64,000 bases of DNA from an uncultured Bdellovibrionales bacterium (GCA_964405465.1 CAYONZ010000015.1:3721-67720); one strand, 5' to 3'. Positions 24,664 through 48,665 are shown, counted from the first letter of the stretch. The notes: generated by a model from the sequence alone, not told the origin. Translations and numbers: made by a program.

Positions 24664-24688
24664 GAGGGGACGGAGCCCCTCTTTTTTT
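24664..24688 (+). terminator. rho-independent terminator built from a GGGGACGGAG copy
   Basis: GAGGGG-acggag-CCCCTC stem-loop followed by TTTTTTT. The motif copy at 24666-24675 supplies one arm and the loop. Confidence 0.75.
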
Positions 24689-26100: not shown

Positions 26101-27771
26101 CTATTTCCTAATGTAGTTATAAAAAGCTACTGCGCTTAAAACAACGGCAAGCCCATAAGAAATTGCACTCATAAACGGAAGGTTTAATAGCTTTGGCTCT
26201 TTGTCTACTATTTGTAAAATCGAAGCACTTAAAATGAGACTGCCAATGACAAAACCTAGAAAGATAATATTCGAACCCGTCTCGACAGATCTCTTGAGTT
26301 CATCCACCCCGTGTATTTTGTGTTTCAAAGAAAAATCTGGATGATTGATCTTGCGGACCATTTGCTTAAGCTGCTTAGGCAAAATAGCAAGCAGAGACGC
26401 GGAATCACGCGCCAAATATAAAAGATCTTCTTTCACTCTTTCCGGTTCATACCGCGTTTTGACCAACTCCGAGGCAAAGGCCATTGCTTGAGCCAGGAAA
26501 TCAAAGTCCTTCAGCACCAACCGACCCATACCCTCAACCGTAACTATAGACTTAAAAAACAACATCAACTCACTCGGCATAACCAAATGGTATCGCGCCG
26601 CTATTGCCGTACTCTCCATCAGCAATTTTCCAAAATCCACATTCTTCGTCGAGAGTCCAAAGTAGGGAGCCAATAAATCCCTTAGGTCTTTTGCGAAACG
26701 ATCCAAATCTACCCGGTCATTAAATGGTGCCAACTCTACATACTCATAGGCCATTCGCTCATAGTCCTCTGTGTATAGTGCCACAAACATATTGGCGATC
26801 GTATTTTGAGACTTGCGATTCAGTCGCCCCACAATTCCAAAATCAATCAAACCAATGCGGCCATCTGCCATCACAAAAAGATTTCCAGCATGAAGGTCAC
26901 CATGAAATAGTCCATCCTTGAAAACCATTTTTAAATAACATCGAAGGCCCTCATTCATGAATTTTTCTCGATCAATTCCCTCCTGCAAAAGGGCCGCACG
27001 ATTGCTAAGGGGAATTCCCTGTAAAGCTTCTAGCACTAGAATTCGACGTGTTGAGCACTCGAGATAGACCTGGGGTATTTTGATCGACGATTCATTCCGA
27101 AAGTTTTCAGAAACCCTTCTGATGTTATTTGCTTCGATAATAAAATTTGTTTCTAATTCGAGTGTTTTAAAAAACTCATCAACAATCCCAACGGGATTGA
27201 AAGCTCTGGTTTCTGGAGCATATTTCTCAAGTAGATCAGCAATGAAATAAAGAATTCCTACGTCTTGCTGGATCGTCTCAACGATTCCTGGACGCTGAAC
27301 CTTGACGACTACCGCCTCTCCATTCTTTAGAGTCGCACGATGTACCTGCGCAATACTAGCCGCACCCAAAGGCAAGGGTTCGAAAACTTCAAAGGTTTCA
27401 TGCAGATCACAACCCAGCTCTCCTTCGATGACTTTCCGAATATCTCCAAATGGAAGTGCAGATACTTGATCATGAAGTTTTTTAAACTCATCAACAAAAT
27501 CACTTGGAACTAGATCGGGCCTAGTCGCAAGCAATTGCCCCAACTTGACAAATGTGGGTCCAAGCTCCTCGAAGCTTAAACGCATTCGCTCCGCAGGGGT
27601 CAAATTTTCGACCCCTGAACGGTTCATACGATCTAAGACAAACCTTCCAAGATTAATTTTTTCGGCGACGCTTCGAAACCCGTTCTTTGCGAACACGCCC
27701 ACGATTGTTTTCAGTCTTGCCGCGTTTTTGAACGTATTTCCGATTTTCATCGGAGCCCTTAGAAGATTCAA
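26101..27771 (-). CDS. ubiB: ABC1/UbiB family kinase-like protein
   Basis: AASIAQVHRATL..VVKVQRPG, HGDLHAGNL and IDFG, plus C-terminal TM helices. Confidence 0.85.
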   Translation of the reverse strand: MNLLRAPMKIGNTFKNAARLKTIVGVFAKNGFRSVAEKINLGRFVLDRMNRSGVENLTPAERMRLSFEELGPTFVKLGQLLATRPDLVPSDFVDEFKKLHDQVSALPFGDIRKVIEGELGCDLHETFEVFEPLPLGAASIAQVHRATLKNGEAVVVKVQRPGIVETIQQDVGILYFIADLLEKYAPETRAFNPVGIVDEFFKTLELETNFIIEANNIRRVSENFRNESSIKIPQVYLECSTRRILVLEALQGIPLSNRAALLQEGIDREKFMNEGLRCYLKMVFKDGLFHGDLHAGNLFVMADGRIGLIDFGIVGRLNRKSQNTIANMFVALYTEDYERMAYEYVELAPFNDRVDLDRFAKDLRDLLAPYFGLSTKNVDFGKLLMESTAIAARYHLVMPSELMLFFKSIVTVEGMGRLVLKDFDFLAQAMAFASELVKTRYEPERVKEDLLYLARDSASLLAILPKQLKQMVRKINHPDFSLKHKIHGVDELKRSVETGSNIIFLGFVIGSLILSASILQIVDKEPKLLNLPFMSAISYGLAVVLSAVAFYNYIRK

Positions 27772-30232
27772 TTTCTACTCCTACCAATTCAAAATCGACT
27801 TTGCCTGCCTCAGGGTCGGCAGCCACCACTCGCACCTTCAAAATGTCACCCAATGAAAATGATTGTCCAGTACGTTTGCCCACCAGTCGCAAGTTTTGCT
27901 GATCAAATTCAAAACGATCATTGCCAAGTCTTTCAATCTTGATCAGTCCATCAACATCATAGGCGCGAAGTTGAACAAAGATACCAAACTTCGTGACCGA
28001 ACTGACCATACCCTCAAACTCACTTCCTACAAATTGCTTGATGAACCTCGCTTTTTTTATTGAAATCAATTGCCTCTCGGCCTTTGCTGATCTCTGTTCA
28101 CAAGCGCTTAACATTACACCTGCGGTTTCCAGCTCTTCGATGCGAAGCTTGTCTCTGTTGTATTTTGGGTACAAAACACTTTTGGTCAACCGATGGACGA
28201 TTAAATCTGGGTATCGCCGAATCGGAGAAGTAAAATGTGCGTAGTGAGAAAATCCCAATCCAAAGTGACCTACGTTCTCTGGACTATATTTCGCCTGATT
28301 CATTGATCGAAGTGTTAAAATATTCAATATCGTAGCTTCTGGTTTTCCTGCAAACGACTCAAGTGCTCGAGTGATTTTCTTTTGCAACTTGCCACCCTCA
28401 AGACTTCTTGGCCCCCCAAAATTAAAGAGAAAGCGCTCGAGAGATTTGAGATTCTCATCCATTGGTGGTTCATGAACACGATAAAGAGCAGGGACCTGCT
28501 TTTCATCCAAAAATTCAGCCACAGAAATATTGGCTGCCAACATTAACTCCTCGATCAGACGATGCGCGAATAGCCGTTCTGTCTTGATGATATCAGTTGT
28601 GTTTCCTGATGGATCAACGACAACTTGGGTTTCTGGAATTTCAAGATCAAGTGAACCCTCTCGAAATCTTTTTGCCATCAGGATTTTTGCCAAACCTGCG
28701 GCAGCGCGAATATGCTCGGCCACATGTTTGATTTTTTCGGGTGGATTTCCATCAATCGCCTCTTGTGCCTCTCCATATGTCACTCGCGCCTTTGACTCCA
28801 TCACAGCTTCGTAAAACTTCTTGCTTTGAATTTCTCCCTCAAAGCTGATTTGCATTTCACAAACAAAGCAAAGGCGAACGACATGGGGTTTGAGCGAACA
28901 CAGTTCATTACTCAATTCCTCTGGTAACATCGGAACCACATAGTTTGGAAAATAAGTGCTCGTACCTCGCTCGAAAGCTTCTATGTCTAACGCTGTCTCT
29001 GCTATGACATAGTGACTGACATCTGCAATGGCTACCCAGAGTTTGAAGCCACTCGGAGTTTGCTCCACATAAATGGCATCGTCAAAATCACGCGCCGTTG
29101 CTCCGTCAATCGTTATCAAACTTTTTTCTCTGAGGTCCACTCGTCCGGCTATGTCTTCTGGCCTGACCTCCGTCCCCCATTTTCGGGCATCACGAAGAGC
29201 ATTTTGGGAAAACTCATGTGGGATATGATGGTGAAATATCATGCGTTTCACATCGTTAATCGGATCATCGGCGTCACCCAAAATCTGCACAACACGTCCG
29301 GTAAAATCGTCCGTCTCACTCGGATAGGTCAGCACATCCACTGCAACCATATCACCCTCTTTAGCTCCACCACTATCGGCAGCGGCAATGCGGAGGTCAG
29401 CTCCCCATCCCCGCCCCTCATCCAAAATCACACCGTATTTCAAGTCGACAGGAAGATACCGACCGACGATGCGCTGATGTGCTCGACTGATCACTCGCGT
29501 GATTTCTCCAGCTAATCTGTCCTGGGAATCTTTTTTATAAACACGGACCTCAACCTTGTCGTTTGTCATTACCGCAGACATATACTGGCGAGGAACATAA
29601 ACGTCCGGATAGGCCTTATCATCACAGAGTAAGAAACCAAAACCATCCGGATGGCGTTTAATCGTCCCGATCAACAAGTCTTTACGCCCCGCCTGTGGCT
29701 TTTCTGCACTCGGTTTCACCGGCATTTGATATTTTCCTGCGCTTCGCCGAGGGGACTCCGTCCCCTGCTTTGGGGACGGAGTCCCCCTTGGGGAAGTGGA
29801 GGCGGAAGAACTTTTTGATACTCCCCTTGAATTCTGATTCTCATGATTTTCACGGTATTTCCCACCGCTTTTTCGTTTTGATTTGCGACCGACTAAATCC
29901 TCTTCTTTTCGCGACACTTGGCGATCATCTTTTGTCGTACTCTTCTGCGATCGATTTTTTTTCGATGTTTTCTTATAAGTCTTTCCACTTCCCACTTCGG
30001 ACTTTGCTTTTTCTTCGGAGGTTCTCGTTAGCCCAAAGCTTGTCTGATTTTTTCTTGGCTCGGTCTTTCCGCTTCCACCAAAAAGACTAGAGAGACTTCG
30101 CGACGAAGACGCTTTGATCTGTAAACCACTCCGTCCCACTGACTTTTCAGCCCTTGAAACGATTTCAGATTTACTATTTGACCCGCCGGCCGATTCATTA
30201 CGAGACTTTTGTTTTTTTCTGTTATTTCTCAT
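27653..30232 (-). CDS. rnr: ribonuclease R with a roughly 200-aa Ser/Lys/Arg-rich N-terminal extension
   Basis: CSD (HPDGFGFL), RNB core and C-terminal S1 (GMVSSVTKFGIFVQL) followed by a basic tail. The ORF is open to 30322, so the start is uncertain. Confidence 0.9.
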   Translation of the reverse strand: MRNNRKKQKSRNESAGGSNSKSEIVSRAEKSVGRSGLQIKASSSRSLSSLFGGSGKTEPRKNQTSFGLTRTSEEKAKSEVGSGKTYKKTSKKNRSQKSTTKDDRQVSRKEEDLVGRKSKRKSGGKYRENHENQNSRGVSKSSSASTSPRGTPSPKQGTESPRRSAGKYQMPVKPSAEKPQAGRKDLLIGTIKRHPDGFGFLLCDDKAYPDVYVPRQYMSAVMTNDKVEVRVYKKDSQDRLAGEITRVISRAHQRIVGRYLPVDLKYGVILDEGRGWGADLRIAAADSGGAKEGDMVAVDVLTYPSETDDFTGRVVQILGDADDPINDVKRMIFHHHIPHEFSQNALRDARKWGTEVRPEDIAGRVDLREKSLITIDGATARDFDDAIYVEQTPSGFKLWVAIADVSHYVIAETALDIEAFERGTSTYFPNYVVPMLPEELSNELCSLKPHVVRLCFVCEMQISFEGEIQSKKFYEAVMESKARVTYGEAQEAIDGNPPEKIKHVAEHIRAAAGLAKILMAKRFREGSLDLEIPETQVVVDPSGNTTDIIKTERLFAHRLIEELMLAANISVAEFLDEKQVPALYRVHEPPMDENLKSLERFLFNFGGPRSLEGGKLQKKITRALESFAGKPEATILNILTLRSMNQAKYSPENVGHFGLGFSHYAHFTSPIRRYPDLIVHRLTKSVLYPKYNRDKLRIEELETAGVMLSACEQRSAKAERQLISIKKARFIKQFVGSEFEGMVSSVTKFGIFVQLRAYDVDGLIKIERLGNDRFEFDQQNLRLVGKRTGQSFSLGDILKVRVVAADPEAGKVDFELVGVEIESSKGSDENRKYVQKRGKTENNRGRVRKERVSKRRRKN
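29168..29177 (-). repeat. GGGGACGGAG motif copy (exact)
   Basis: CTCCGTCCCC on the + strand. Inside rnr; the sense strand reads W-G-T-E-V. Confidence 0.9.
29751..29786. repeat. perfect 15-bp inverted repeat made of two motif copies (GGGGACTCCGTCCCC-tgcttt-GGGGACGGAGTCCCC)
   Basis: Read directly. Motif copies at 29756-29765 and 29772-29781. It lies inside the rnr N-terminal extension (codons R-G-T-P-S-P-K-Q-G-T-E-S-P). Confidence 0.95.
30129..30138 (-). repeat. GGGGACGGAG motif, 9/10 copy
   Basis: CTCCGTCCCa on the + strand. In the rnr N-terminal extension (V-G-R-S-G). Confidence 0.6.
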
Positions 30233-30352
30233 TACCCAAAACGCTAACACACGCCCCATACCGAAGGAATCTTTAGTCAGCCCCACCAAGCACATCGCGT
30301 TACATACACTTTGATTTTCCAACCGACCTCATCTACCATCAGAGGTCGTTGG

Positions 30353-30439
30353 GCCCGGATGGCGGAACTGGTAGACGCGCTAGATTCAGGTTCTAGTCCT
30401 CGCAAGGGGGTGGAGGTTCAAGTCCTCTTTCGGGCACCA
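30353..30439 (+). tRNA. tRNA-Leu (anticodon CAG), encoded CCA
   Basis: Hand-folded cloverleaf. Acceptor GCCCGGA/TTCGGGC, anticodon stem CTAGA/TCTAG with loop TTCAGGT, long variable arm, T-arm GGAGG-TTCAAGT-CCTCT, and 3' ACCA. Confidence 0.9.
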
Positions 30440-30853: not shown

Positions 30854-32245
30854 CTAGCCGAAAACAACACCCGTGACCTCGGTGTTCAGCTTAAAGAGAG
30901 AATCTCCAAGTCGTGCTACCAATATCTTTTTTGCTTCGTCCAGTGGTAGCCAATAGTAGTGAAAATTGAGACTCTTATCTGCATCGGTCCCAGTAACTTT
31001 ATGTGTCCACCTGTCCTTAATTTGAAAGTCTCCAACCAAGTGGTACACATGCCGTTTTGTGTACCTTTGGGACCATTCAGCAAAAAAGAGATACTCATCT
31101 ATTTTGTTTATTGAAAATGGACCACATAGACCTGATTCTTCAAAGACCTCCCTTAACAGCTCCTGCTCAGTGTCTGTTCCACATTCAATGATCCCCGCTG
31201 GAACCTGAGTTCCCGCATCTGCAAAATGCTTGTCATGGTCAAACACCAAAAGTTCAGGTCTATTCTGGCCCTTTCGAGTTCGAGTAATGTATGCAACAAC
31301 TTTTGTCGAAATTTTTTGTTTGGAGGAATCGTGGACTTTCATGACCTGATCCCTCGCCTCCCCCAGAGCATCAGCAAGAGTCACCCAGTATCGCCGAACA
31401 TATTCATTTTTGATTTTATCAAAAAATCTATTTTCCAGATGAGCAGAATACCCCTCAACGATTCTCCACGACGGTGTATTCTGATCTCCGCATGTGATCA
31501 GAACTTTTTCTAAGCCAAGCTTTTGGCAAATTCCCAATCCCTGGCGATAGATTTCGAATCCATATCCACGCCCTCGGTACTTTGGGTTCACGGCATATCC
31601 GATGTGCCCGCCTCGCTCCATGAGCGCCGTGTTTAATTCGTGACGAATGTTGATTCTCCCCACAATTTTTTCTCTTACAAAAGCATAAAGCATTGTCGAC
31701 GCCACTTGACCCGAGCCAACTGAAATGGGGTTTTTCTGAAGATCGAGAAGCTGGAGGTGCTCTCCAAAAGACATCCCAGAGGACCACAGAAATGTGAACC
31801 AAGAAACTCCCTCTTTTTTCCACTCCTCTAGCCCCTCAAAAAATGCAACCTCGTCGTCAGCGTTAAGTTCACGTAGAATCAATTCCTCCATAAACATTTC
31901 CTCATTTTCATTTAAATTTTTTCCAGAATTCAACGATCGAACATGTTCGCACACCGAGAAAGAACGGGGGTAATCCAAAATTTTTTTCGATAATAGTATT
32001 TCGCAGTCCTCTTGTTCCGGACAACCGATAGTCTCTTCCAAAGCGAGATAGCGCAACCAGTTAGGGAATCTTTGAGCTCTTACCTTTAAACCAGGGGTCC
32101 GGAAGGAGTGCAAAAGGTAGATCATGAACCGCGTCCAATACCCCTGGAGGCACTCACTTTGGGGGGACGGAGTACTACTTTCTGAATTTGTTTTCTTATT
32201 TGAAAAAGCCAACAACAAAGTGCCAATTATATGGCCGGATCGCAA
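30854..32245 (-). CDS. GNAT N-acetyltransferase / NUDIX hydrolase fusion protein
   Basis: GNAT core (YRGRGYGFEIYRQG) followed by a Nudix box GIIECGTDTEQELLREVFEESGL. The N-terminal ~130 aa are unrecognised and the start is uncertain. Confidence 0.65.
   Translation of the reverse strand: MRSGHIIGTLLLAFSNKKTNSESSTPSPQSECLQGYWTRFMIYLLHSFRTPGLKVRAQRFPNWLRYLALEETIGCPEQEDCEILLSKKILDYPRSFSVCEHVRSLNSGKNLNENEEMFMEELILRELNADDEVAFFEGLEEWKKEGVSWFTFLWSSGMSFGEHLQLLDLQKNPISVGSGQVASTMLYAFVREKIVGRINIRHELNTALMERGGHIGYAVNPKYRGRGYGFEIYRQGLGICQKLGLEKVLITCGDQNTPSWRIVEGYSAHLENRFFDKIKNEYVRRYWVTLADALGEARDQVMKVHDSSKQKISTKVVAYITRTRKGQNRPELLVFDHDKHFADAGTQVPAGIIECGTDTEQELLREVFEESGLCGPFSINKIDEYLFFAEWSQRYTKRHVYHLVGDFQIKDRWTHKVTGTDADKSLNFHYYWLPLDEAKKILVARLGDSLFKLNTEVTGVVFG
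32163..32172 (+). repeat. GGGGACGGAG motif copy (exact)
   Basis: In the N-terminal region of the GNAT-Nudix ORF. The sense strand carries the C-rich complement (T-P-S-P). Confidence 0.9.
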
Positions 32246-32711: not shown

Positions 32712-33596
32712 TTAGGAGGCTCCGTCCCCTTTTATCGCCTCTTCCTGGGGAAGTTTGCGGCCAACAGCCATTAAGGTGCGACCCGATCCCAGGAGAACTG
32801 GATCACTCGAATAATCAAAGAGAAAGTCAGCCCACTTCTTTTTCAATCTCTCAGGTAAACGGTTAAAAATTTCGTCAAAAGCACCGATACATGGATCAGT
32901 TACATGTAGTGCTTCGAGTTCGAGATCCGCCACGTTGTGCAACGACCGGACATCCTCAAAGGAACTAAAATATCCACGAAACATTCCATTCCTGGGATGA
33001 TCCTTTACAAAACCAGATTGCATCATTTCTTTTGCCTGCTCCGGTACACGCTCAAGCCATTCCGGAAATAGTGCCAATTGATACGACATCAATCCCATCC
33101 TAGTTAAAAAAGAACTAAAGATTTTCCCATTTGGAGAGAGCAGCATTTCGATGTCTTTCATCAATTTGTGCCTATCATCACTTTTTACCAGGTGATACAA
33201 TGGGCCCATAACTAAAATTGCATCAAATTTTTCAGGAACCAACGATCTTACCTCCCTGGCGTCCCCCACTACAAAGCTGACTTGCGAACCAAACTCTGAA
33301 ACCCTTCTTCGATTTTCGTCAATTAATTCCTCTGTCAAATCTAGCGCGGTCACCTTGTGTCCGGCCTCAAGCAAATATTGAGTATATCGTCCGGAACCTG
33401 CTCCCAACTCGAGTACATTTTGAGGAGATTTTAAATAAGAATCCAAAACCTTTTTTGTGATCGCAAATTCCAACTGCTGAGTCTGTAACCTCCCACTCTC
33501 TCCGTTTTTTCTGTAATACTGAGCAATATCCGCCAGATCTTCGAACTCCGTCCCCTCATTTTTGACGCTCTTTTTGTCACTGCCTTCATTTTTCAT
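32712..33596 (-). CDS. class I SAM-dependent methyltransferase
   Basis: VLELGAGSGRYT..KVTALDL motifs. Confidence 0.75.
   Translation of the reverse strand: MKNEGSDKKSVKNEGTEFEDLADIAQYYRKNGESGRLQTQQLEFAITKKVLDSYLKSPQNVLELGAGSGRYTQYLLEAGHKVTALDLTEELIDENRRRVSEFGSQVSFVVGDAREVRSLVPEKFDAILVMGPLYHLVKSDDRHKLMKDIEMLLSPNGKIFSSFLTRMGLMSYQLALFPEWLERVPEQAKEMMQSGFVKDHPRNGMFRGYFSSFEDVRSLHNVADLELEALHVTDPCIGAFDEIFNRLPERLKKKWADFLFDYSSDPVLLGSGRTLMAVGRKLPQEEAIKGDGAS
32720..32729 (-). repeat. GGGGACGGAG motif copy (exact)
   Basis: Covers the last codons of the methyltransferase (K-G-D-G-A-S-stop). Confidence 0.9.
33546..33555 (-). repeat. GGGGACGGAG motif copy (exact)
   Basis: At the methyltransferase N-terminus (N-E-G-T-E-F). 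Confidence 0.9.
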
Positions 33597-35208: not shown

Positions 35209-36049
35209 TAATTGGGGCCGGGGACGGAGACTTGAGCAGAAAATAAATACGGTCGCAATTCGGATGATTCAGACGACCAACTTGTCTTTAATCAGATTTC
35301 AACGTTGTCCCCGAATTGCACGATTCGACCACATGAGAATATCGAGGACACAACAACTTCACCCTTTTTCCGCTAGCACACATATGTACTGGAAATGCCA
35401 CAATCACGAATACTATCTCCAAAAGAACTCAATAAAAGATCTTTACATAAAATGCATAAATGAATCACTAAATCGAAAAAGCTCATATCACTCTAAAATC
35501 ACCATTTCCTCCTTCTGCGTAATGAGTAACCATTTTCACCAAATCGCTTCATATAGAAATTCATCTATTCACCTTTCCAATCACATGCGATACAGCCAGG
35601 GGTTATTTGGCGCTCGTTACAATCGCATGAATAGTCGAGCTGGAAAGGTTTCGATCGGACGACCAAAGACTCCGCTTATTCAAAATAGCACCCATGAGAT
35701 GAAAGTTCATTTATACATCGAAGCAAATCCAATTAGAGCAGGCATATGTAAAATACAGGATCTTAAATATTTCAAACATTGCTCATTTAGATTCTATGCC
35801 TTTGGAATTGAAGATCAAATCACAAAAATTCTGACGATACCTCAATGGTACCTAGACTTAGGAAGAACTTCTTTGGAAAGACAGAAAAAATATAGGGAAC
35901 TTTTTTTGGCAGCTCTCAAGTCTTACGCATTTTCCCCGGCAAAATACCTAAGGTTTCAATTGCCGTTTATTGGTTCACAAAAATGGATAAAATCTCAGCA
36001 TTGCCGTCTAGCAAAAATAAAAAAGTTAAATTCGCTCAACGACTCCTAG
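35204..36049 (+). CDS. REP-associated tyrosine transposase (RAYT) / IS200-like Y1 HUH transposase
   Basis: HUH motif in VMSNHFHQIA and the catalytic-Tyr helix HLYIEANPIRAGICK. The spacing and the LFGARYNRMNSRAGKV segment fit the Y1_Tnp (COG1943) family. There is no tnpB partner. The start is uncertain (35204, 35264 or 35333). Confidence 0.75.
   Translation: MSNWGRGRRLEQKINTVAIRMIQTTNLSLIRFQRCPRIARFDHMRISRTQQLHPFSASTHMYWKCHNHEYYLQKNSIKDLYIKCINESLNRKSSYHSKITISSFCVMSNHFHQIASYRNSSIHLSNHMRYSQGLFGARYNRMNSRAGKVSIGRPKTPLIQNSTHEMKVHLYIEANPIRAGICKIQDLKYFKHCSFRFYAFGIEDQITKILTIPQWYLDLGRTSLERQKKYRELFLAALKSYAFSPAKYLRFQLPFIGSQKWIKSQHCRLAKIKKLNSLNDS
35220..35229 (+). repeat. GGGGACGGAG motif copy (exact) at the 5' edge of the RAYT ORF
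   Basis: Context GGGGCCGGGGACGGAGAC. It lies upstream of the internal Met codons at 35264 and 35333 that may be the real start. Confidence 0.9.
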
Positions 36050-36052: not shown

Positions 36053-36700
36053 CTATTTACCTTTATCGATAATTCGCCCCTCATACATATAAAACACATC
36101 TCCGCCAAATACTTCGACATCTCCTGGGTCATGTGTAATCAGCATTGTTGGAATTTTATTTCTCTCAATCAGTGATTTTATCAATGATCTGGCCTCTGCT
36201 TTATTTTCAGCATCCAACGCTGAAAATGGCTCGTCCAACAGCAATATCCTTGGCTGTCTAGCAATCGCTCTTGCTATTGCGACTCGCTGTTTTTCACCTC
36301 CAGACAATTCTCCACCCTTTCGATCGGCACATCCACTCAAACGCAATTGATCTATTAAACTCTGAACACGGAGGCTCCGTCCCTTTTTGTCGCCTCCGAC
36401 TAAAGTCAGGGGAAATTCTATATTTTCTCTGACTGTCATATGTGGAAATATTTCTAAACTCTGAAAAACTACACCAATATTTCTTTCCAAATGACTAATT
36501 TTTAAAAGGTCCGTCCCCTTCCATTCCCAAGTCCATTCTTGCTGTGGTATTTCCAAACCAATTAGAGAACGAAAAAGAGTTGTCTTGCCGGATCCCGAAG
36601 GTCCCAGCAAACAAGTAGCTCCAATATCTGACAAAAACAATTCGGGTACATTCAAACAGAAACTACCCAACCTAACCTTAAGGTTTCTTATAACCGACAT
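36053..36700 (-). CDS. thiQ: thiamine-type ABC transporter ATP-binding protein
   Basis: Walker A GPSGSGKTT, signature LSGGEKQRV and Walker B LLLDEPFSALD. Last gene of the thiB-thiP-thiQ arrangement. Confidence 0.7.
   Translation of the reverse strand: MSVIRNLKVRLGSFCLNVPELFLSDIGATCLLGPSGSGKTTLFRSLIGLEIPQQEWTWEWKGTDLLKISHLERNIGVVFQSLEIFPHMTVRENIEFPLTLVGGDKKGRSLRVQSLIDQLRLSGCADRKGGELSGGEKQRVAIARAIARQPRILLLDEPFSALDAENKAEARSLIKSLIERNKIPTMLITHDPGDVEVFGGDVFYMYEGRIIDKGK
36375..36384 (-). repeat. GGGGACGGAG motif, 9/10 copy
   Basis: CTCCGTCCCt on the + strand. In thiQ (K-G-R-S-L). Confidence 0.6.
36509..36518 (-). repeat. GGGGACGGAG motif, 9/10 copy
   Basis: gTCCGTCCCC on the + strand. In thiQ (K-G-T-D-L). 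Confidence 0.6.
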
Positions 36701-38141
36701 TTCCCATCCCTTTGAACAAAAAGAACGTGACTAACCCCCCACATACTAGAACCCATACCTCAGCAGTTGCCACCGACAGTCGATAGCTTTCCATCAAACC
36801 TGCCACTTGAAGCGATAATGTTAGTGGCTTCGCAAGTACCATCTTTGACAAGGAAATATCCCCCCAGGCCCAAAAACTTGCAAATGCAGCTATCCCACAG
36901 CAACGACTCCAGGCTTGCGGCAATACAATTCTTGTAAGAATTGTTAGGGGCCCTCCCCCCATCGTGCGCACTAACTGAACCTGTGAATTTATTTGGCCTA
37001 AAAAAGAATCCAAATAAAATCGATAGAGAAACGGAAAAAAAAGTACGCTTAGACCTATAATTAGACTGAATTTGCCAGTTAGATTGAAGCTGATCATTGC
37101 AAAGCCAACTACAACCATACTAGGTGCCAAGTGCCCTAAAAGAACTTTTCGAACTGCTCCGGTTGGGAATACGTAAAGTATCAATATGCAAAGCCCCAAG
37201 GAGGCTAGTCCAACTCCCATTCCTATAAAAATCGATCCAATGAGTCCATCGAGGATTCCGTCGAGTATGGCTGGGTTGCTCAAAATTAATTGAACTCCGT
37301 CCCCAAAACCAACGCTTAGGCCAACGAATAGACAACTCACTGGCAGAAGTACCGGAACCAAACCAAGTGGACTTGAAAGAAGACTCAGACCCATGCCTTT
37401 GGGACGTCCCTCTATCTGAAAATGAACACGTCTTTGCGTAAGCATCAAAGAAAGTCCAAGAACCAATACGCTCTGTATGAAAGAATACGACGCAGCCAGC
37501 CCCCAATTTTGGTCCACCCGAAGTTTTTCATAAATCAATACTTCAAGCGTTGTCGCCCCCCTTCCCCCGAGAATCAAAGGGATTGAGAAGCTAGTCAAAC
37601 ATATCGCAAATATCGACAATCCAATTATCCTCACGTCCTTCTCAATGTTGCCATACACAACCCTTCGAAAAAACGTCCACTTCCCTGCTCCCATCACCTC
37701 AGCCACTGCGGAATACCTAGCAACTACCGAAACTAGCAAATCCTCCAGGGCAACAGCCACTATTCCGACGTTTATCAGAGAATGGACAACCACTATGGAT
37801 GCCAGCGGAGCAATATTTCTTGGTGCCAAATTCAAATAGGCCAAAATCAATAGAAGCGATGGAAAAACATTAGGAACTATCGACAGAAATCGAGCTGCTG
37901 ATACCAAACCAGACGAGTAATGTCGACTCAGATAAATCAACCCATAAGCACCCAATAAACCGAAAGTCATCGTAACGAATGCGCTTAAAAACGATTGGGC
38001 CAACGTAAAACCCAACGCTCTCCAAAAATCCTGGCCAACTAAAAAACTGCTTACATCGAAGTGAAGGCCTAAAACTAAATAAGGAAAAATCAGAAATGTG
38101 AGGAGTATCAGCAGAATAAATACTCGAAAGGGATCCCTCAT
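36678..38141 (-). CDS. thiP: thiamine-type ABC transporter permease (duplicated domain)
   Basis: 487-aa two-module permease between the ThiB-like binding protein and the ATPase. Confidence 0.7.
   Translation of the reverse strand: MRDPFRVFILLILLTFLIFPYLVLGLHFDVSSFLVGQDFWRALGFTLAQSFLSAFVTMTFGLLGAYGLIYLSRHYSSGLVSAARFLSIVPNVFPSLLLILAYLNLAPRNIAPLASIVVVHSLINVGIVAVALEDLLVSVVARYSAVAEVMGAGKWTFFRRVVYGNIEKDVRIIGLSIFAICLTSFSIPLILGGRGATTLEVLIYEKLRVDQNWGLAASYSFIQSVLVLGLSLMLTQRRVHFQIEGRPKGMGLSLLSSPLGLVPVLLPVSCLFVGLSVGFGDGVQLILSNPAILDGILDGLIGSIFIGMGVGLASLGLCILILYVFPTGAVRKVLLGHLAPSMVVVGFAMISFNLTGKFSLIIGLSVLFFPFLYRFYLDSFLGQINSQVQLVRTMGGGPLTILTRIVLPQAWSRCCGIAAFASFWAWGDISLSKMVLAKPLTLSLQVAGLMESYRLSVATAEVWVLVCGGLVTFFLFKGMGNVGYKKP
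37295..37304 (-). repeat. GGGGACGGAG motif copy (exact)
   Basis: In thiP (F-G-D-G-V-Q). Confidence 0.9.
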
Positions 38142-38168
38142 CGTTTTAACTCTAGTTGGAATTTTTGC

Positions 38169-39182
38169 TCAAAACCCATCAATCCGTTTCCATATCTCCA
38201 ACATCTCATGTTTTCGATCGCCCAACCTAAGGTTAATTGAACCTTCAATTAATTTGAGCTCTGGAATTTTGTCGAACTCCGTCCCCTTTTTAACAGAATC
38301 TACAACAGGCAGCATATAGTTCTTCTTCATGATTATAGACTGAGACTCTGGTTCTAGTAGGAAACTCAAAAACAACAGTGCAGCTTCTTTCTGTAAACTG
38401 CCCGCAGGAACCCCCGCAAACTCAACCTGAATTGGATGGCCCTCTTTGAATACTGAAGCCCGATACTCGGACTTCCCTTCCTCAATCAAATGATACAACG
38501 GTGAGGTTAAATACGACATCACCAATTTTGCATGCCCAGATTGAAATAAGCCGTAGGCCTGGGACCAAGAACTCGAAATGCTTTGAATATTTGGAGCCAA
38601 TTGGGTTAAAAAACCACGAGCTCCGTCCCCCTTTTCACCCATTGGAAAGCCTTTTTGAGCAAAAACCCAGAAGAGAAACTGTTGTCCCGGTGAACTAATC
38701 CTGGGGTCCTGCAAAGCAATCTGACCCCTAAATCGAGAACTCAATAAATCATCCATCGACTCCGGTGGAACAATTTCTTTATCCCGATAAATAAAAGCCA
38801 TCGGAGCCCAATCAAATGCGTAAAACTCATCACGGGCAAATCGTGCAGTTGTTCCCTGAAGCCTCTCCCACTTAAACTGTTTCGCGGCTTCTTCCACCGA
38901 AAACTGATCCAAACCCACCACCACATCAGCTTTCCGAATCTTTAGCCTTTCCAAGAGCAGTGCTCCGTCCCCACCATCCTGAAAACTAACGGCGATTTGG
39001 TATTTCTCCTCAAATCGCTTTGCCAACTCCGGACCCGGCCCCCATGAATTCATAAATGACCCATAGGTCAGGACCTCGATCGATTTCCCCACAGAGCTCC
39101 GTCCCCGTGCCATGTTCCAATAGATCGCAATGCCCACCAAAATCGACACCATTGTAACCAACAGAATTACAACCCTCTTCAT
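38169..39182 (-). CDS. thiB: thiamine ABC transporter substrate-binding protein
   Basis: VLTYGSFMNSWGPGP, QDPRISSPG, SWSQAYGLF and SYLTSPLYHLIEE match ThiB/TbpA as I recall it. Confidence 0.8.
   Translation of the reverse strand: MKRVVILLVTMVSILVGIAIYWNMARGRSSVGKSIEVLTYGSFMNSWGPGPELAKRFEEKYQIAVSFQDGGDGALLLERLKIRKADVVVGLDQFSVEEAAKQFKWERLQGTTARFARDEFYAFDWAPMAFIYRDKEIVPPESMDDLLSSRFRGQIALQDPRISSPGQQFLFWVFAQKGFPMGEKGDGARGFLTQLAPNIQSISSSWSQAYGLFQSGHAKLVMSYLTSPLYHLIEEGKSEYRASVFKEGHPIQVEFAGVPAGSLQKEAALLFLSFLLEPESQSIIMKKNYMLPVVDSVKKGTEFDKIPELKLIEGSINLRLGDRKHEMLEIWKRIDGF
38277..38286 (-). repeat. GGGGACGGAG motif copy (exact)
   Basis: In thiB (K-G-T-E-F). Confidence 0.9.
38621..38630 (-). repeat. GGGGACGGAG motif copy (exact)
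   Basis: In thiB (K-G-D-G-A). Part of the 13-mer GAGCTCCGTCCCC. Confidence 0.9.
38963..38972 (-). repeat. GGGGACGGAG motif copy (exact)
   Basis: In thiB (G-G-D-G-A-L). Confidence 0.9.
39097..39106 (-). repeat. GGGGACGGAG motif copy (exact)
   Basis: In thiB (R-G-R-S-S). Part of the 13-mer GAGCTCCGTCCCC. Confidence 0.9.
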
Positions 39183-39186
39183 TCAA

Positions 39187-39666
39187 CTACCACCAAATGC
39201 CTCGATGGCGTTTATAAAAGTAATAATCTAGCCCAAGACACCGACCTGCCCCCATCCATCCCAAAGTAAGGTGGACCATCAAAACAAAAGTTGTTTGTAA
39301 ATCCGTTGTAGTCTGAACCATCAATAACAAAACACACGCCAGCATTCCCAACATCGCAAACGGACGCACCAAATACCCAAGAATATACGCCAAGCCCATG
39401 ACGATTTGAAAAATCACAAAGATATGTGCAAATACCTGCCAGTTCGGTATCACAACATTCTCCAAGAAAAATCGCATAGCTTCGGGGACAGCCGATTGCG
39501 GTAAAAAATTTCTAATATCCTCTGCTAAATAGGCATGCTCCAAATATCCACTTTTAAGATGCGAAATACCCAAGTTAAAATAATAGTAGCCTAAAAAAAT
39601 ACGCAGAAATGAAATCGGTAAAAAATGCCCAACGTATTTGATGCTCTCAACGAATGCAATAATCAT
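39187..39666 (-). CDS. small integral membrane protein (DoxX-like, tentative)
   Basis: Four hydrophobic helices. AAGGAGA lies about 10 nt before the ATG at 39666. The family call is a guess. Confidence 0.4.
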   Translation of the reverse strand: MIIAFVESIKYVGHFLPISFLRIFLGYYYFNLGISHLKSGYLEHAYLAEDIRNFLPQSAVPEAMRFFLENVVIPNWQVFAHIFVIFQIVMGLAYILGYLVRPFAMLGMLACVLLLMVQTTTDLQTTFVLMVHLTLGWMGAGRCLGLDYYFYKRHRGIWW

Positions 39667-39709
39667 AAAACTCATTCTCCTTGAGGGAACTACCCTGGTC
39701 AACTCTGCC

Positions 39710-40447
39710 TCAGAGTTTTTTCATACACAATTCATTTAGAAAACAAGAGCCACACTGAGGGCTTCGTGCCTTACATACCTTTCTTCCATGCCAGATCAAT
39801 TGATGGGAAAACGCAATCCACTTTTCCTGCGGCAACAACTCCATGATTTCCCTTTCGATTTTTACTGGATCATCTTCCTTAGTGAGTCCCATCCTCTGAC
39901 ACAGTCTCCTGACATGAGTATCCACCACTACTCCAGAGGGAATTCCAAATGCCACACCTAAAACTACATTCGCTGTCTTTCTACCCACACCGGCCAACTC
40001 AACCAGCTTGTCTAAACTTTTGGGAATCTCACCGTCATATTTCTCAACCAAAGTCTGGCAGCATCGCTGAATATTTTTAGCCTTGTTCTTATAAAAACCA
40101 GTCGATCGAATAATTTCTTCCAGATTTTTTAACGGAGCCCTGCTCAATGAAAATGCATCCGGGTACTCCTCAAACAAAATTGGAGTCACCATATTAACAC
40201 GCTCATCCGTACACTGCGCCGACAAAATTGTCGCCACCAAAAGCTCCAGCGTACTCCTGTGGTTTAATGCACACTCCGCTTCCGGATAATATTTTTCTAA
40301 CAAGGCCACAGCTTTCGCGATCCGATTCGTCTTTTCTCCTACAGATTCACCTCTAGAAAATGAGGTCGCTCGCTCACCCGGCTTAGTGCTCTTGCCCGAC
40401 AGCTTGTGGTTCTTTTTTGAATTCTGAAGTTTTCTCTTTTTCTTCAT
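39710..40447 (-). CDS. nth: endonuclease III with a basic N-terminal extension
   Basis: HhH (LVELAGVGRKTANVVL) and the 4Fe-4S cluster loop CKARSPQCGSCFLNELC. Confidence 0.9.
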   Translation of the reverse strand: MKKKRKLQNSKKNHKLSGKSTKPGERATSFSRGESVGEKTNRIAKAVALLEKYYPEAECALNHRSTLELLVATILSAQCTDERVNMVTPILFEEYPDAFSLSRAPLKNLEEIIRSTGFYKNKAKNIQRCCQTLVEKYDGEIPKSLDKLVELAGVGRKTANVVLGVAFGIPSGVVVDTHVRRLCQRMGLTKEDDPVKIEREIMELLPQEKWIAFSHQLIWHGRKVCKARSPQCGSCFLNELCMKKL

Positions 40448-40606
40448 TTTGATGTTGTTCCCCTTGAGATTTCACACTGTCCCTAAGTGTTAGGACTAAA
40501 GTCAAGTCATCCAGACTCGCACTGGGTCTGGATTTAAAGAGACCATACATTTTTATCTCATTTCCTGCTCAGTATTTTCGTACACTAATCTTATAAGGAG
40601 GGCCCC

Positions 40607-41695
40607 ATGGAAGGACCACGTCCACCACAGGATCACGAAATTAATGGTGTATTTTCGTTTCTCAATACGCACCTCCGTCCCCAAGAAAAATGGTCGATCA
40701 CGGCAGAATATCCGATCGCTTTTGCTTCGGGAAACTATGGCAACATGAGGATAATTAAAGAAAACAACGAGGTTCTCTCACACGCTGTAATGCGCCCCTT
40801 GATCGTAAAGTCCACCTGCGGCCTCTTTAAAGTTGGAGCGATCGGAAGTGTCGTCACCTCAACAGACCATCGCAACCAAGGTCTCAGTCGCCAAATTCTT
40901 GAGAGCTGTGTTTCCGCTGCGCGAGATCACGGTTGTGATATCGCAATCCTTTGGACCAACCTCTACGATTTCTATCGAAAGCTCGGTTTTGAACTCGCGG
41001 GTTCAGAGGTAAGTCTTGTAATTGATCGAGAGCTCAAGCTCGAAACCAATTACAAAATCGTTGAGGGAACCAAAGTTGATCCCGAAGCAATTCACAAGCT
41101 TTTTCTAAGTCACACAGTCTGTTCACTTCGAAATCTCGATGAAACTCGGCGCTACATGCAAATTCCCAATACACGGATGTACACGGCATGGGATGCTAAT
41201 GGATCCATCAAAGCTTTTGCCGTAGAGGGAAAGGGCGCTGATCTCGACGGTTACATTCATGAGTGGGCAGGATCAGTGAGCGCCCTCATGTCCCTGTTTG
41301 ACCATATTCGAAAAGCTCAGAAACGAAATATTACGGTCATTTCCCCTAGGCACTCGATCAATTTAATTCAGCAGCTAAAAGCACAGGGGATTCGCTCACA
41401 CGAGGGATTTTTGGGAATGGTAAAGATTCTCAACCACAATAATCTCTTCAGCAAACTGAAGAGATATGCCCGAGCTATGGGTGTCGGCGAGCTGGTCCTC
41501 GAAAAACAAGGCGACTACTATTACTTTGGGTCCGAAGACAATATTTTCAAAACAGACTCAGATGTGGATCTCATTCGGTTGATTTTCGGTCCCCAACGCC
41601 CTTCAGAGATTCACAAATTCGATCCTTCAACAACAAAGATGTTTGAGCAGATTTTTCCGATCGATATGTGGATTTGGGGTTGGGACTCAATATGA
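40607..41695 (+). CDS. GNAT acetyltransferase with an Eis-like C-terminal domain (tentative)
   Basis: GNAT core (HRNQGLSRQILESCV..YRKLGFE) plus a roughly 200-aa C-terminal extension. Confidence 0.55.
   Translation: MEGPRPPQDHEINGVFSFLNTHLRPQEKWSITAEYPIAFASGNYGNMRIIKENNEVLSHAVMRPLIVKSTCGLFKVGAIGSVVTSTDHRNQGLSRQILESCVSAARDHGCDIAILWTNLYDFYRKLGFELAGSEVSLVIDRELKLETNYKIVEGTKVDPEAIHKLFLSHTVCSLRNLDETRRYMQIPNTRMYTAWDANGSIKAFAVEGKGADLDGYIHEWAGSVSALMSLFDHIRKAQKRNITVISPRHSINLIQQLKAQGIRSHEGFLGMVKILNHNNLFSKLKRYARAMGVGELVLEKQGDYYYFGSEDNIFKTDSDVDLIRLIFGPQRPSEIHKFDPSTTKMFEQIFPIDMWIWGWDSI
40673..40682 (-). repeat. GGGGACGGAG motif copy (exact)
   Basis: CTCCGTCCCC on the sense strand of the GNAT gene (H-L-R-P-Q). 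Confidence 0.9.
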
Positions 41696-42609
41696 AGAGT
41701 GAATCCTCCGCAAACTTCCGACCTGGTAAAACCATCTCTAGGCAAACCAATCTGACTCGAGCTCCGTCCCCTGCAAAAATGGTCGGAGAGATGGTCGAAT
41801 GGGTCGGACTGCGGATAACTCTATTGTCAGCACTTCTGCTCTGTGCGTGCGTAAAACACGAACAACCCAAACAAGACTTTGGACCAGAATCTGACCCGCA
41901 GGAAATCCTCAACACAATCAAAAAAGTTAGATCTTCAAGCAATCCATTTTCGATGAAAGTCGGCGAATTTGTCCACCTTGAGGAGAACCAGACCGTGGCC
42001 AACACTGTTCACTCCATCACTGCCGACACCGGAATTACTGTGACCAATCGTGAAGAAAACGATGTCGCCGTCCGATATTCGTTCACCCAACGGCGATTCA
42101 CATACTATGAGCAAAAGCCCCGAGAGGTCGCTACAGAACTTCCTCCCCTTGTCCTAAAAAAGCCGCAGAAGTCTTCCTCCAGTATCGCAGACATGATTTT
42201 CTCTTTTGGTATTTCAGTAACTCCGTCCCCGAACCCCTTGGCTCCGTCCCCTTTGTCGGGACCCCAGACCCACCTCACTATGAGCGCGTCCGAGCCCTCT
42301 CAAGTAACCTTTCACAATTTTAAATTTTCTGAACAAACCGAACCAGCCCCTGACCTGGTCGCCCAACGCCCAGACTGCCTCAATATCGAAGGTTGTAAGT
42401 ACAAGGTCTCGCGCATTTCATTCGATGAAGTCGCTTGGATCAACAACCAACCCGAACTCACACAATACTCCTATGCATTCAGCGACCGCGTTCCCTACAT
42501 CGCCAGTCAACTCGAAAACTGTGCCACTCGCATGGTCGAACTCTCCAGTGGCAGCAAAGCTCCCGTTAAGTTCTGTAGTGTTGTTCGAGACTTCAAGTCA
42601 GGCAACTGA
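41692..42609 (+). CDS. putative lipoprotein
   Basis: ATGA start/stop overlap with the upstream gene. Lipobox-like LLSALLLCAC. No family recognised. Confidence 0.5.
   Translation: MKSESSANFRPGKTISRQTNLTRAPSPAKMVGEMVEWVGLRITLLSALLLCACVKHEQPKQDFGPESDPQEILNTIKKVRSSSNPFSMKVGEFVHLEENQTVANTVHSITADTGITVTNREENDVAVRYSFTQRRFTYYEQKPREVATELPPLVLKKPQKSSSSIADMIFSFGISVTPSPNPLAPSPLSGPQTHLTMSASEPSQVTFHNFKFSEQTEPAPDLVAQRPDCLNIEGCKYKVSRISFDEVAWINNQPELTQYSYAFSDRVPYIASQLENCATRMVELSSGSKAPVKFCSVVRDFKSGN
41762..41771 (-). repeat. GGGGACGGAG motif copy (exact)
   Basis: C-rich strand in the sense of the lipoprotein gene (A-P-S-P). Part of the 13-mer GAGCTCCGTCCCC. Confidence 0.9.
42221..42230 (-). repeat. GGGGACGGAG motif copy (exact)
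   Basis: In the lipoprotein gene (T-P-S-P). Direct repeat with the copy 21 bp downstream. Confidence 0.9.
42242..42251 (-). repeat. GGGGACGGAG motif copy (exact)
   Basis: In the lipoprotein gene (A-P-S-P). Confidence 0.9.
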
Positions 42610-42692
42610 TCCATTCCCACTTGCCATCTGAATTCTATCGAGTCACAATTCTTAAAGTCGAAGTGTTTTGGCACAATTTATGAGGAGGGAAA

Positions 42693-43343
42693 ATGCGAAG
42701 AGTTGCAGTCATATTGTCAGGCTGTGGCTTTCGAGATGGGGCCGAAATAACCGAATCCATTAGTACCCTTATTTGTTTATCCGAACTCAAAGCCGAGGTG
42801 GAGTGTTTCGCACCCAAACTCGATTTTTCTCCCACTAATCATCTGAATAGTAGCCAAAGTTCCGAGGTCCGAAATACTTTGTTTGAAGCAGCGAGAATTT
42901 CTCGCGGCCACATATCAGATCTCGACACGCTTGATGAAAAAAAATTTGATGCCATTGTTCTCCCCGGAGGATTTGGAGTTGCTCAACATCTGAGTGATTT
43001 CGCAAAAAATGGCGCCAAGGCGAAGGTACTACCCTCCCTTGAATCAAGACTTCGCGCATTTCACAAAAACTCTAAGCCAATTGGCGGAATCTGTATCGCA
43101 CCCGCCGTGATCGCTCTTACTCTAGCCCAATACAGGGTCACAGTGACAATTGGAAATGATCCAGAGACAATAAAAGAAATTGAAAAAACCGGGGCCCAAC
43201 ATGTTGTTTGCTCTGCAACAGATTACATTAGTGATCGTGACAACAAAGTTCTTACAACCCCGGCATACATGTTTGATGCAAAACCACACGAAGTTTTCAC
43301 TGGAGTGCGAGCCATGTTGCGTGAACTGGTGGAAATGGCGTAA
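42693..43343 (+). CDS. elbB: ElbB-type DJ-1/PfpI family protein
   Basis: VAVILSGCGFRDGAEITE start and ICIAP nucleophile-elbow context. Confidence 0.75.
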   Translation: MRRVAVILSGCGFRDGAEITESISTLICLSELKAEVECFAPKLDFSPTNHLNSSQSSEVRNTLFEAARISRGHISDLDTLDEKKFDAIVLPGGFGVAQHLSDFAKNGAKAKVLPSLESRLRAFHKNSKPIGGICIAPAVIALTLAQYRVTVTIGNDPETIKEIEKTGAQHVVCSATDYISDRDNKVLTTPAYMFDAKPHEVFTGVRAMLRELVEMA

Positions 43344-43359
43344 TAACTAAGGATTGTTT

Positions 43360-44445: not shown

Positions 44446-44459
44446 ACTGAATGGTTTTA

Positions 44460-46029: not shown

Positions 46030-46092
46030 TGTCTTATCGGCCTATCCGGGCCTCACTAAACAAGACAATCGCCCCACTTGGACCATAGCCCT

Positions 46093-46127
46093 GATTGTCC
46101 GAGCTATGACAAACCTCTCGGACAATC
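46093..46127. repeat. perfect 11-bp inverted repeat GATTGTCCGAG-N13-CTCGGACAATC
   Basis: Read directly in the 415-bp intergenic region upstream of nadE. Confidence 0.85.
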
Positions 46128-46171
46128 AATTTCACTCCGGCGAAATCCTCCCCCTTAACTCAAACTGGGAC

Positions 46172-46195
46172 CTCCAAATTTGGAGCTCCGTCCCC
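46172..46195. repeat. 14-bp palindrome CTCCAAATTTGGAG abutting an exact motif copy (CTCCGTCCCC at 46186-46195)
   Basis: Read directly. Intergenic. Confidence 0.9.
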
Positions 46196-46444
46196 CTTGG
46201 GTAAATTGGATCATGGGCGCAACTTACTAGAATGGTTGAATTAATTTGGAGCAACCAAAGAATTTGTGCGGCACCAGTACTAGTTCTTCAGTCAAGAAAT
46301 GTAGGTTCCATTTTCAATCAAAGACCAACGAGCCCTGGAGACATTTTGAATTCGCAACAGAATATGATCGATAGATTTTTCAACAAATGATAAATTGCCA
46401 CTAGACAATGAGCTTCGAGAATAAAATTAATTCGGAGAAAATAC

Positions 46445-48427: not shown

Positions 48428-48665
48428 AGTTATACCTGTAGGCGTACAAGGCAATTGTCGCTGTCTCTAGATCACTGGAACACAATGGATCTATACCTCA
48501 ACCTACTGATTGAGTGTCCCGATTTCCACTGCCCAAAGTTTTCACGTTTTTGAGCAGTGTATAAGCCATCGACACTCAGGAAGAAATTCTAGAGCTACAA
48601 AAATTTAGCCATCCACTTTCGAGATGATCATTTTTCTGGCTCCGATTACAGGGTAAGATGCGGCG

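Follow-up and report, generated by a model that had tools for sequence, protein, structure and literature searches.

Systems that pair repetitive extragenic palindromic (REP) sequences with a REP-associated tyrosine transposase (RAYT) were reportedly treated by Nunvar in 2010. The system considered here lies in a 64,000-nt stretch of DNA from an uncultured Bdellovibrionales bacterium (GCA_964405465.1 CAYONZ010000015.1:3721-67720), referred to as the window. The element in question is a perfect inverted repeat inside rnr, the gene for RNase R, and the gene of interest is a RAYT-like transposase gene located 5.5 kb from it, at the center of a motif-rich zone. In the described RAYT systems, the replicative unit is the REP doublet that forms a hairpin, or REPIN (PMC3116915, Bertels & Rainey 2011). 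Intragenic REP dimers that encode 20-30 amino acids are known and are insertions (PMC3733652). A further group is composed of the TIRYT/TIRtron genes (Di Nocera 2013, PMC3733652), which are TnpA-REP subclass 2.1 (Quentin 2018, PMC6006769). The inverted repeats on either side of TIRYT genes carry the motif GGGGWSAS, i.e., GGGG[AT][CG]A[CG] (PMC3733652, PMC6006769).

The rnr hairpin is interpreted as a REPIN-like doublet: two copies of the repeat cognate to the neighboring RAYT/TIRYT-like transposase, tolerated in a disordered linker. This interpretation is given a probability of about 0.7. Each arm of the hairpin holds a 10-mer, CTCCGTCCCC, and this word is most likely the target of the transposase.

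The hairpin in rnr and its 10-mer

The inverted repeat at 29751-29786 is GGGGACTCCGTCCCC-tgcttt-GGGGACGGAGTCCCC. Its 15-bp arms are perfect reverse complements separated by a 6-nt spacer. By simple arithmetic, 64 kb would contain about 0.004 perfect 15-bp inverted repeats whose spacer is ≤60 nt, and an inverted pair of 10-mer cores with a spacer of ≤6 nt has a P of ~0.08 given the local density (25 copies in 26 kb). Five extra bases, GGGGA, are common to both arms and are found in no other copy in the window, so the doublet is one unit of 36 bp and 12 codons rather than two independent matches. The hairpin region is 100% identical in L010, a Logan assembly made independently from the same sequencing run; the hairpin is thus not an error of a single assembly.

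The predicted folding energy of the 36-nt hairpin RNA is -35.3 kcal/mol. In a 96-nt RNA context, it drops to -48.5 kcal/mol (z = -6.1), a stability matched by 0 of 200 shuffles. As single-stranded DNA, the hairpin region folds at -20.9 kcal/mol (z = -6.1). The original prediction was of a perfect 15-bp inverted repeat with a 6-nt loop, made of two motif copies within the rnr coding sequence and forming a strong hairpin. Its coordinates and sequence are confirmed, and RNA folding bears out the stability.

The host open reading frame (ORF), on the minus strand at 27653-30322, encodes RNase R. It matches the Pfam domains OB_RNB, CSD2, RNB, and S1, and its homologs are named ribonuclease R. The hairpin is located ~540 nt into the ORF and is translated as ...SPRGTPSPKQGTESPRR..., with RGTPSPKQGTESP as the peptide encoded by the doublet. 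This site is part of a ~200-aa K/R/S-rich, low-complexity N-terminal extension. The extension is found in all Bdellovibrionota-type relatives, and alignment shows it to be hypervariable in both length and sequence. The doublet is in frame, and the region around it varies in length among homologs. Protein identity to the nearest RNase R relatives is 57-69%, a distance at which the hairpin region is not reliably alignable for the question of a 36-bp insertion. Neither the hairpin nor the motif is found in any sampled rnr relative (genome-contig scan, 120 homologs, 5 fetched contigs).

The homologs begin with MKRS..., and the true start of rnr is therefore probably further downstream than 30322 or 30295. 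A gap of 30 nt separates the start of the longest rnr ORF from a tRNA-Leu(CAG) gene at 30353-30439 (+). The gene order rnr-ubiB-flagellin-flagellin is kept in relatives. In the window, ~22 kb of menaquinone, shikimate, and oligopeptide-transport genes (3600-26000) are found between ubiB and the flagellin genes, and this segment is almost motif-free. Another perfect 15-nt inverted repeat, AAATCGCTTCGATTA/TAATCGAAGCGATTT, is present at 36-67. It has a 2-nt spacer, is AT-rich, is unrelated to the motif, and sits at the 3' end of ORF 48-695 (-).

The 10-mer occurs 27 times in the window and is by far its most over-represented 10-mer in an unbiased k-mer count. The excess is 443-fold over composition and 810-fold over the second-order Markov expectation. 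It falls to 5-fold at one mismatch (6 copies) and to 1-fold at two mismatches. In shuffled controls, 6 matches at ≤2 mismatches were reached in 0 of 100 shuffles. Outside the core, purines are weakly preferred at the three positions 5' of it, and no more extended consensus is seen. The repeat is a short word and not a long repeat unit. The literature search found the motif string in no bacterial paper.

The copies are strongly clustered. All 6 one-mismatch copies and 25 of the 27 exact copies are located at 24.6-50.4 kb, in a zone centered on the transposase ORF at 35333-36049. The remaining 38 kb contains two copies, which form a single intergenic doublet (808/869), and so few copies outside the zone has a P of 5e-8. 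Motif-rich and motif-free segments share the same GC content and the same tetranucleotide usage, and a compositional island was rejected on this basis. Three inverted pairs are present in the window. All are arranged as 5'-CTCCGTCCCC...GGGGACGGAG-3', with spacers of 6, 13, and 51 nt, and at least two inverted pairs with a spacer of ≤13 nt has a P of 0.011 given the local density. Single copies were also considered as decayed doublets. This was rejected, as no partner arms were found above background beside them.

About 20 of the 27 copies lie within predicted coding sequences. They occupy five of the six reading frames, sense and antisense, and encode GDG(V/A/G), GTE, xPSP, LRP, or GRS. In alignments to homologs, five single copies, one of them in the UvrA gene of L139, are alignable, and each has replaced existing codons without indels (Table 1). 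Single 10-mers cannot be insertions, since 10 nt, not being divisible by 3, would break the reading frame and the alignments are gapless.

The transposase gene and its flanking copies

Alignment of homologs places the start of the transposase at 35333, which gives a product of 238 aa. The HUH motif (NHxHQ) and the tyrosine in YIEANPIRAG are invariant among the aligned homologs. Among the 87 homologs found with this ORF, several are annotated with PF01797 (IS200-like Y1 transposase) or with the Joint Genome Institute name 'REP element-mobilizing transposase RayT', and the two with an organism name are both from Bdellovibrionales. Close variants of the transposase are also present: P0242 is 79% and P0328 ≥90% identical to it. 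The ORF has no Pfam match at E ≤ 1e-5 and matches the NCBIfam model REP_Tyr_transpos at E = 3.8e-8. Three of six scanned homologs pass the Pfam Y1_Tnp cut-off. The profile search returned 228 representative clusters at E ≤ 1e-30, and the superfamily comprises ~16,000 at E ≤ 1e-10.

The AlphaFold model of the transposase has a pLDDT (predicted local distance difference test) of 94.4. Its top fold match in the PDB is 4ER8, a complex of the E. coli REP-associated tyrosine transposase with a REP hairpin (E = 1.2e-6, TM-score 0.73 normalized to the target), followed by the TnpA structures of IS608 and ISDra2. PDB sequence searches with the transposase and with its family profile gave no match, and 4ER8 was reached by the fold search only. 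No Pfam helix-turn-helix (HTH) domain is detected in the C-terminal part at E ≤ 1. The catalytic motifs and the modeled RAYT fold together show that ORF 35333-36049 is an intact gene for a RAYT-like Y1 transposase.

The motif and this transposase are associated in other loci. A motif-only search led to L081, a motif-rich contig of Bdellovibrionota/Oligoflexia. The only gene that it has in common with the window is the transposase ORF, and the L081 homolog is intact. The loci L139, L141/L142, and L143-L146 were fetched only by homology to the transposase protein. L139 (52% aa identity, GC 45%) contains 5 copies where 0.012 are expected (P = 2e-12). L141/L142 (52% aa identity, GC 34-36%) contains 5 copies against 0.002 expected (P = 6e-16). 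L143-L146 (42% aa identity, GC 39%) contains 3 copies and 1 one-mismatch copy against 0.009 expected (P = 1e-7). All L141 copies are within 2.3 kb of the gene and all L143 copies within 0.9 kb, with none in the remaining 12-20 kb.

Control loci behave differently. In 233 kb of Bdellovibrionota loci without the transposase gene, there is 1 copy against 0.65 expected. No copies are found near Y1 transposases that are 28-32% identical. Viral contigs contain only distant Y1 transposases, without the motif. The motif is also absent from the nearest RNase R relatives and from the relatives of a second motif-rich locus. The association is thus observed in four organisms, that of the window and three others that are Bdellovibrionota-like, across a GC range of 34-50%.

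L139 is probably a second locus of the genome of the window. It comes from the same sequencing run, and its tetranucleotide correlation with the window (r = 0.965) is within the window's own range. The genome therefore probably encodes two paralogs, each with a local cloud of motif copies. The L139 paralog is located at 620-1339 and is 52% identical, and motif copies in this locus lie inside ABC transporter, UvrA, and PBP1A genes.

The copies that flank the gene are inverted relative to each other. The G-rich form, GGGGACGGAG, is found on the sense strand upstream of the gene, at -113 in the window, -175, -210, and -251 in L141, -169, -202, and -832 in L143, and -822 in L081. The C-rich form is found on the sense strand downstream, where the window has variants at +326 and +460. 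The variant CTCCGTCCCT is common to the window (+326) and L143 (+255) and occurs downstream of the homolog in L143-L146. This inverted arrangement is typical of RAYT/TIRYT genes. In L143 (10971-11002) and L145 (10971-11025), the downstream motif copy is immediately followed by a (TGTAGA)n microsatellite. Its length differs between samples, with 5.3 units in one and at least 9.2 in a second, and it includes GTAG, the canonical REP head tetranucleotide.

Further downstream, the copies are co-oriented with the gene. This holds for 11 of 11 copies in the window (to +6.2 kb), 8 of 8 in L139, and 12 of 12 in L081 (to +4.1 kb), across host genes of both orientations. Beyond ~+10 kb, at 45.9-50.4 kb of the window, the orientation is mostly reversed, and upstream of the gene it is mixed. 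The sense strand of the RAYT gene is the C-rich strand in four of five loci, so that gene-linked and replication-linked polarity are inseparable.

Table 1. Coordinates of the described features. Positions refer to the window unless another locus is named.
Feature	Position	Strand	Remarks
RAYT/TIRYT-like Y1 HUH transposase gene, intact	35333-36049	+	238 aa; HUH NHFHQ; Tyr in YIEANPIRAG; C-terminal helical extension of ~100 aa
rnr (RNase R)	27653-30295	-	called product P0001, 880 aa; longest ORF up to 30322
Doublet in rnr, left arm GGGGACTCCGTCCCC	29751-29765	+	core CTCCGTCCCC at 29756-29765
Doublet in rnr, loop/spacer tgcttt	29766-29771		6 nt
Doublet in rnr, right arm GGGGACGGAGTCCCC	29772-29786	-	core on minus strand at 29772-29781
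Distant intergenic doublet CTCCGTCCCC-51 nt-GGGGACGGAG	808-878		upstream of flagellin gene; only copies outside 24.6-50.4 kb
Single copy, intergenic	24666-24675	-	left edge of motif-rich zone
Single copy, conserved rnr body	29168-29177	+	W-GTE-V vs Y-GKH/GKT/GGQ-V in relatives; no indel
Single copy, GNAT/NUDIX ORF	32163-32172	-	TPSP
Single copy, 3' end of methyltransferase ORF	32720-32729	+	GDGA-S-stop
Single copy, near 5' end of methyltransferase ORF	33546-33555	+	EGTE
Motif copy upstream of transposase gene	35220-35229	-	113 nt upstream of start; G-rich form on gene sense strand, as in L141 and L143
One-mismatch copy CTCCGTCCCT	36375-36384	+	326 nt downstream of transposase stop
One-mismatch copy GTCCGTCCCC	36509-36518	+	460 nt downstream of transposase stop
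Single copy, ORF 36678-38141	37295-37304	+	GDGV; first of co-oriented downstream run
Four single copies (38277, 38621, 38963, 39097)	38277-39106	+	solute-binding-protein ORF 38169-39182; C-rich form on + strand
Single copy, GNAT ORF 40607-41695	40673-40682	+	LRPQ
Single copy, ORF 41668-42609	41762-41771	+	APSP
Direct core pair, 21 nt apart, ORF 41668-42609	42221-42251	+	TPSP...APSP
Single copy, intergenic	46186-46195	+	overlaps palindrome GGAGCTCC
Three copies, NAD synthetase gene	46790, 47707, 48089 (span 46790-48098)	-, -, +	AGDGVH vs ANEGVH, LGTEHH vs IGATFY, AELRPP vs AELRPS (3ILV)
Single copy, ORF 48666-49847	49555-49564	-	WGRS
Intergenic doublet GGCTCCGTCCCC-13 nt-GGGGACGGAGCC	49904-49940		predicted RNA fold -29.1 kcal/mol
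Single copy, enoyl-CoA hydratase/MenB-like ORF	50373-50382	-	GDGV; right edge of motif-rich zone
Copy in UvrA gene of L139			GPEAGDGGGRIVA vs GPEGGKEGGYIVA (Thermotoga)
Co-oriented downstream stretch, window	36053-50382		all copies co-oriented for 4-10 kb in the three stretches; mostly reversed beyond ~+10 kb in the window
Co-oriented downstream stretch, L139	1762-6745
Co-oriented downstream stretch, L081	2163-5851

A metagenome scan for inverted pairs gave at least 120 matches. These are mostly unrelated GC-rich hairpins, orthologous gut loci, and high-GC soil repeat families. In L089 (GC 44.6%), the 10-mer is at the center of a ~37-nt palindromic REP-like unit, AAAATGGTCCCtcgaCTCCGTCCCCtGGGACCATTTT, at 10 sites (e.g., 9616-9658). 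These units are mostly intergenic, and no RAYT homolog is found within the fetched 14 kb. The high-GC soil contigs L125 (1776-1902), L034 (2301-2390), L013, L056, L114, and L123 contain GACCTCCGTCCCCG in tandem arrays with a period of 20 or 16 and in inverted clusters, which may be acidobacterial TIRYT-type repeat families. L109 (GC 60%) and L111 (GC 46%) have many motif copies embedded in coding sequences. In the rnr and dnaE loci of relatives (L136, L138, L011; high-GC Bdellovibrionota), (CG)n words are strikingly abundant. One of them, GCGCGCGCG, occurs 31 times in 19.7 kb of L136 and is a different hyper-abundant oligonucleotide in the same phylum.

Origin of the doublet and competing explanations

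As a REPIN-like doublet, the rnr hairpin would have the following history. The enzyme would recognize the 10-mer and the doublet hairpin on single-stranded DNA, by analogy with E. coli TnpA-REP and its REP hairpins. Its activity, biased toward DNA near its own gene, would generate or maintain the copies. The rnr doublet would have arisen as one in-frame unit and would persist because a disordered, length-variable linker makes the added peptide harmless. The stable mRNA hairpin would then be a by-product and not an evolved regulator of rnr. Two proposals of the original prediction fit this account: that the hairpin is a RAYT-type substrate, now supported by the RAYT-like gene nearby and by the motif that flanks it and its homologs in other genomes, and that it is tolerated in a disordered linker, supported by the hypervariable, low-complexity extension of all relatives.

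Several observations weigh against this interpretation. The transposase scores 33 bits against a curated NCBIfam cut-off of 80 bits and is also below that of Pfam. A REP is an imperfect palindrome of 20-40 nt with a GTAG or CGTC head; the core here is 10 nt and not self-complementary, and it contains CGTC internally with no stem adjoining. Genome coverage comprises the 64-kb window and ~11 kb that are probably of the same genome, and a background density of the motif throughout the genome is possible. Finally, the intragenic location of ~20 of the 27 copies and the indel-free origin of the five alignable copies are unexplained by transposition-type spread.

A possible, though tentative, account of these indel-free copies is a motif drive. 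The RAYT-like enzyme itself or a process dependent on it would write the exact 10-nt word near the enzyme's gene by short-patch conversion. Host codons would be overwritten without indels, in cis over ~15 kb, with a single orientation on the downstream side of the gene. Such a drive would edit housekeeping genes (RNase R, NAD synthetase, UvrA, PBP1A), unlike cut-and-paste or peel-and-paste elements, and the rnr hairpin would be one of its products.

A role specific to rnr is improbable. Here the hairpin would be an RNA element that acts as a translational pause, a processing site for RNase III or another enzyme, a barrier to 3' exonucleases, or an attenuator, and such a role is compatible with the REPIN-like origin. 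The high stability of the hairpin (-35 kcal/mol; z = -6) is in its favor. REP hairpins can stabilize the mRNA upstream of them, and in E. coli RNase R takes part in the degradation of RNAs with REP structures. This biology makes a feedback loop conceivable and a REP-like hairpin in rnr a curiosity, but nothing here indicates feedback. On neither strand is the hairpin followed by a U- or T-tract (CUCGGCG follows on the rnr strand, CTTGGGG on the other). The terminator scan made no call at the hairpin, and the Rfam scan gave no match there, its sole match being a tRNA. The hairpin is conserved in no sampled rnr relative, and its position in the ORF means that a protected upstream fragment would give no functional product. 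Its sequence is wholly that of a repeat common to unrelated neighboring genes and intergenic sites, which fully explains it. The internal pause, attenuation, or RNase processing site of the original prediction was therefore not upheld.

A domesticated array is likewise unlikely. In this scenario, the RAYT-like protein would no longer transpose anything and would bind the cloud of 10-mers in the service of the host, e.g., to structure the chromosome locally, to nick DNA for repair or replication restart, or to regulate. Selection would keep the copies, and the rnr doublet would be one of the sites. The cloud is indeed local and oriented, and its copies are exact, with one-mismatch forms rare. 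RAYTs are regarded as domesticated genes that usually occur in single copy (bioRxiv 10.1101/119735), and TIRYT subclass 2.1 has HTH-like C-terminal domains (PMC6006769). However, no function can be named, and L141 and L143, with few flanking copies, indicate that a large array is not constant. Selection for 25 exact sites in unrelated coding sequences would be costly and is unneeded for a doublet in a disordered linker.

Favored at first, a genome-wide word of the uptake-sequence or HIP1 type is now considered very unlikely. Such a word would be maintained by recombination together with biased uptake of DNA, or by some other drive acting across the genome. The rnr hairpin would be an inverted pair produced by chance plus drive, like the pairs of the DNA uptake sequence (DUS) in Neisseria. 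The degree of over-representation is suggestive of such a word, as are the copies in five of six frames and on both gene strands. Substitutions at poorly conserved residues are also seen for the uptake signal sequence (USS) and DUS (PMC2817400). The drop from 0 to 1 mismatch is ~160-fold here, compared with 92-fold in Haemophilus and 82-fold in Neisseria (PMC1939737). The distribution, however, is local, with two copies in the 38 kb outside the zone at the same composition, and the copies in L141 and L143 are confined to the vicinity of the RAYT gene. The motif tracks one transposase subfamily across the GC range and is absent from relatives, and no competence genes were seen among the Pfam matches of the window. 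The local distribution and the RAYT association led to the uptake sequence being set aside as the main explanation.

A chance palindrome can be dismissed: an S/P/G/T-rich, low-complexity coding stretch can yield GC-rich repeats, but the expected number of such repeats is far below one, each arm holds a word that occurs 27 times in the window, and the shuffles, k-mer excess, and mismatch profile refute it.

Read as a REPIN-like doublet, a hairpin of such high stability within rnr requires no explanation specific to rnr. The locus bears on how RAYT-type transposases create and maintain repeats and on why hosts keep them. It offers a compact read-out, with an exact 10-nt word, one small enzyme, copy density and orientation tied to the gene, and codon replacements. 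If the enzyme is the cause, this would be a natural short-patch DNA-rewriting activity in cis and a selfish drive that shapes protein sequences, relevant to genome evolution and to HUH-enzyme biotechnology.

Comparison with described systems

The closest systems are the REP/REPIN-RAYT systems. As in these, there is a Y1 HUH transposase with a predicted RAYT fold, a cognate repeat that flanks the gene in inverted orientation, and inverted doublets that form hairpins as single-stranded DNA or RNA, and more than one paralog per genome is possible. Unlike a REP, the core here is non-palindromic and has no GTAG head. REPs are extragenic, dispersed, and inserted as doublets, whereas the copies here are mostly intragenic, indel-free, and within ~15 kb of the gene. 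The uniform co-orientation of the downstream copies with the gene is a further difference.

TIRYTs have a longer RAYT-like protein with an additional helical C-terminal region and short inverted flanking repeats instead of REP hairpins. This locus resembles them in these respects, and the helical C-terminal extension of its 238-aa protein, ~100 aa, is modeled with confidence. Their flank motif, GGGG[AT][CG]A[CG], agrees with GGGGACGG(AG) at 7 of 8 positions; position 7 is G instead of A. TIRYT repeats are moderately abundant and occur as singles, dimers, and groups, as here. Unlike TIRYTs, no HTH is detected by Pfam in the C-terminal part. Embedding in coding sequences by substitution, local clouds, and polarity are not described for TIRYTs in the literature searched.

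Intragenic REPs and Rickettsia palindromic elements are palindromic dimers that lie in frame, including in genes for nucleic-acid enzymes, and add a short peptide (PMC3733652). The rnr doublet resembles them. These elements are insertions of 20-150 bp, whereas here only the 36-bp rnr doublet could be an insertion.

The DUS of Neisseriaceae and the USS of Pasteurellaceae are hyper-abundant exact 9-12-mers. Like the word described here, they arise by point substitution at permissive codons in several frames, drop steeply at one mismatch, and include inverted pairs. They are genome-wide and family-wide, whereas CTCCGTCCCC stays close to the transposase gene and has a patchy occurrence in relatives. 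Cyanobacteria have another short word, HIP1 (GCGATCGC), that is hugely over-represented in genes (PMC5861425). Unlike the 10-mer, HIP1 is an 8-mer palindrome that occurs genome-wide, and its link is to methyltransferases rather than to a Y1 transposase.

Flanking repeats of RAYT/TIRYT genes, REPIN hairpins, and REP dimers inside genes are thus already known. What is new, relative to the literature searched, is a non-palindromic 10-nt word that is embedded in coding sequences by substitution, forms a local oriented cloud, and accompanies one transposase subfamily across GC contents of 34-50%.

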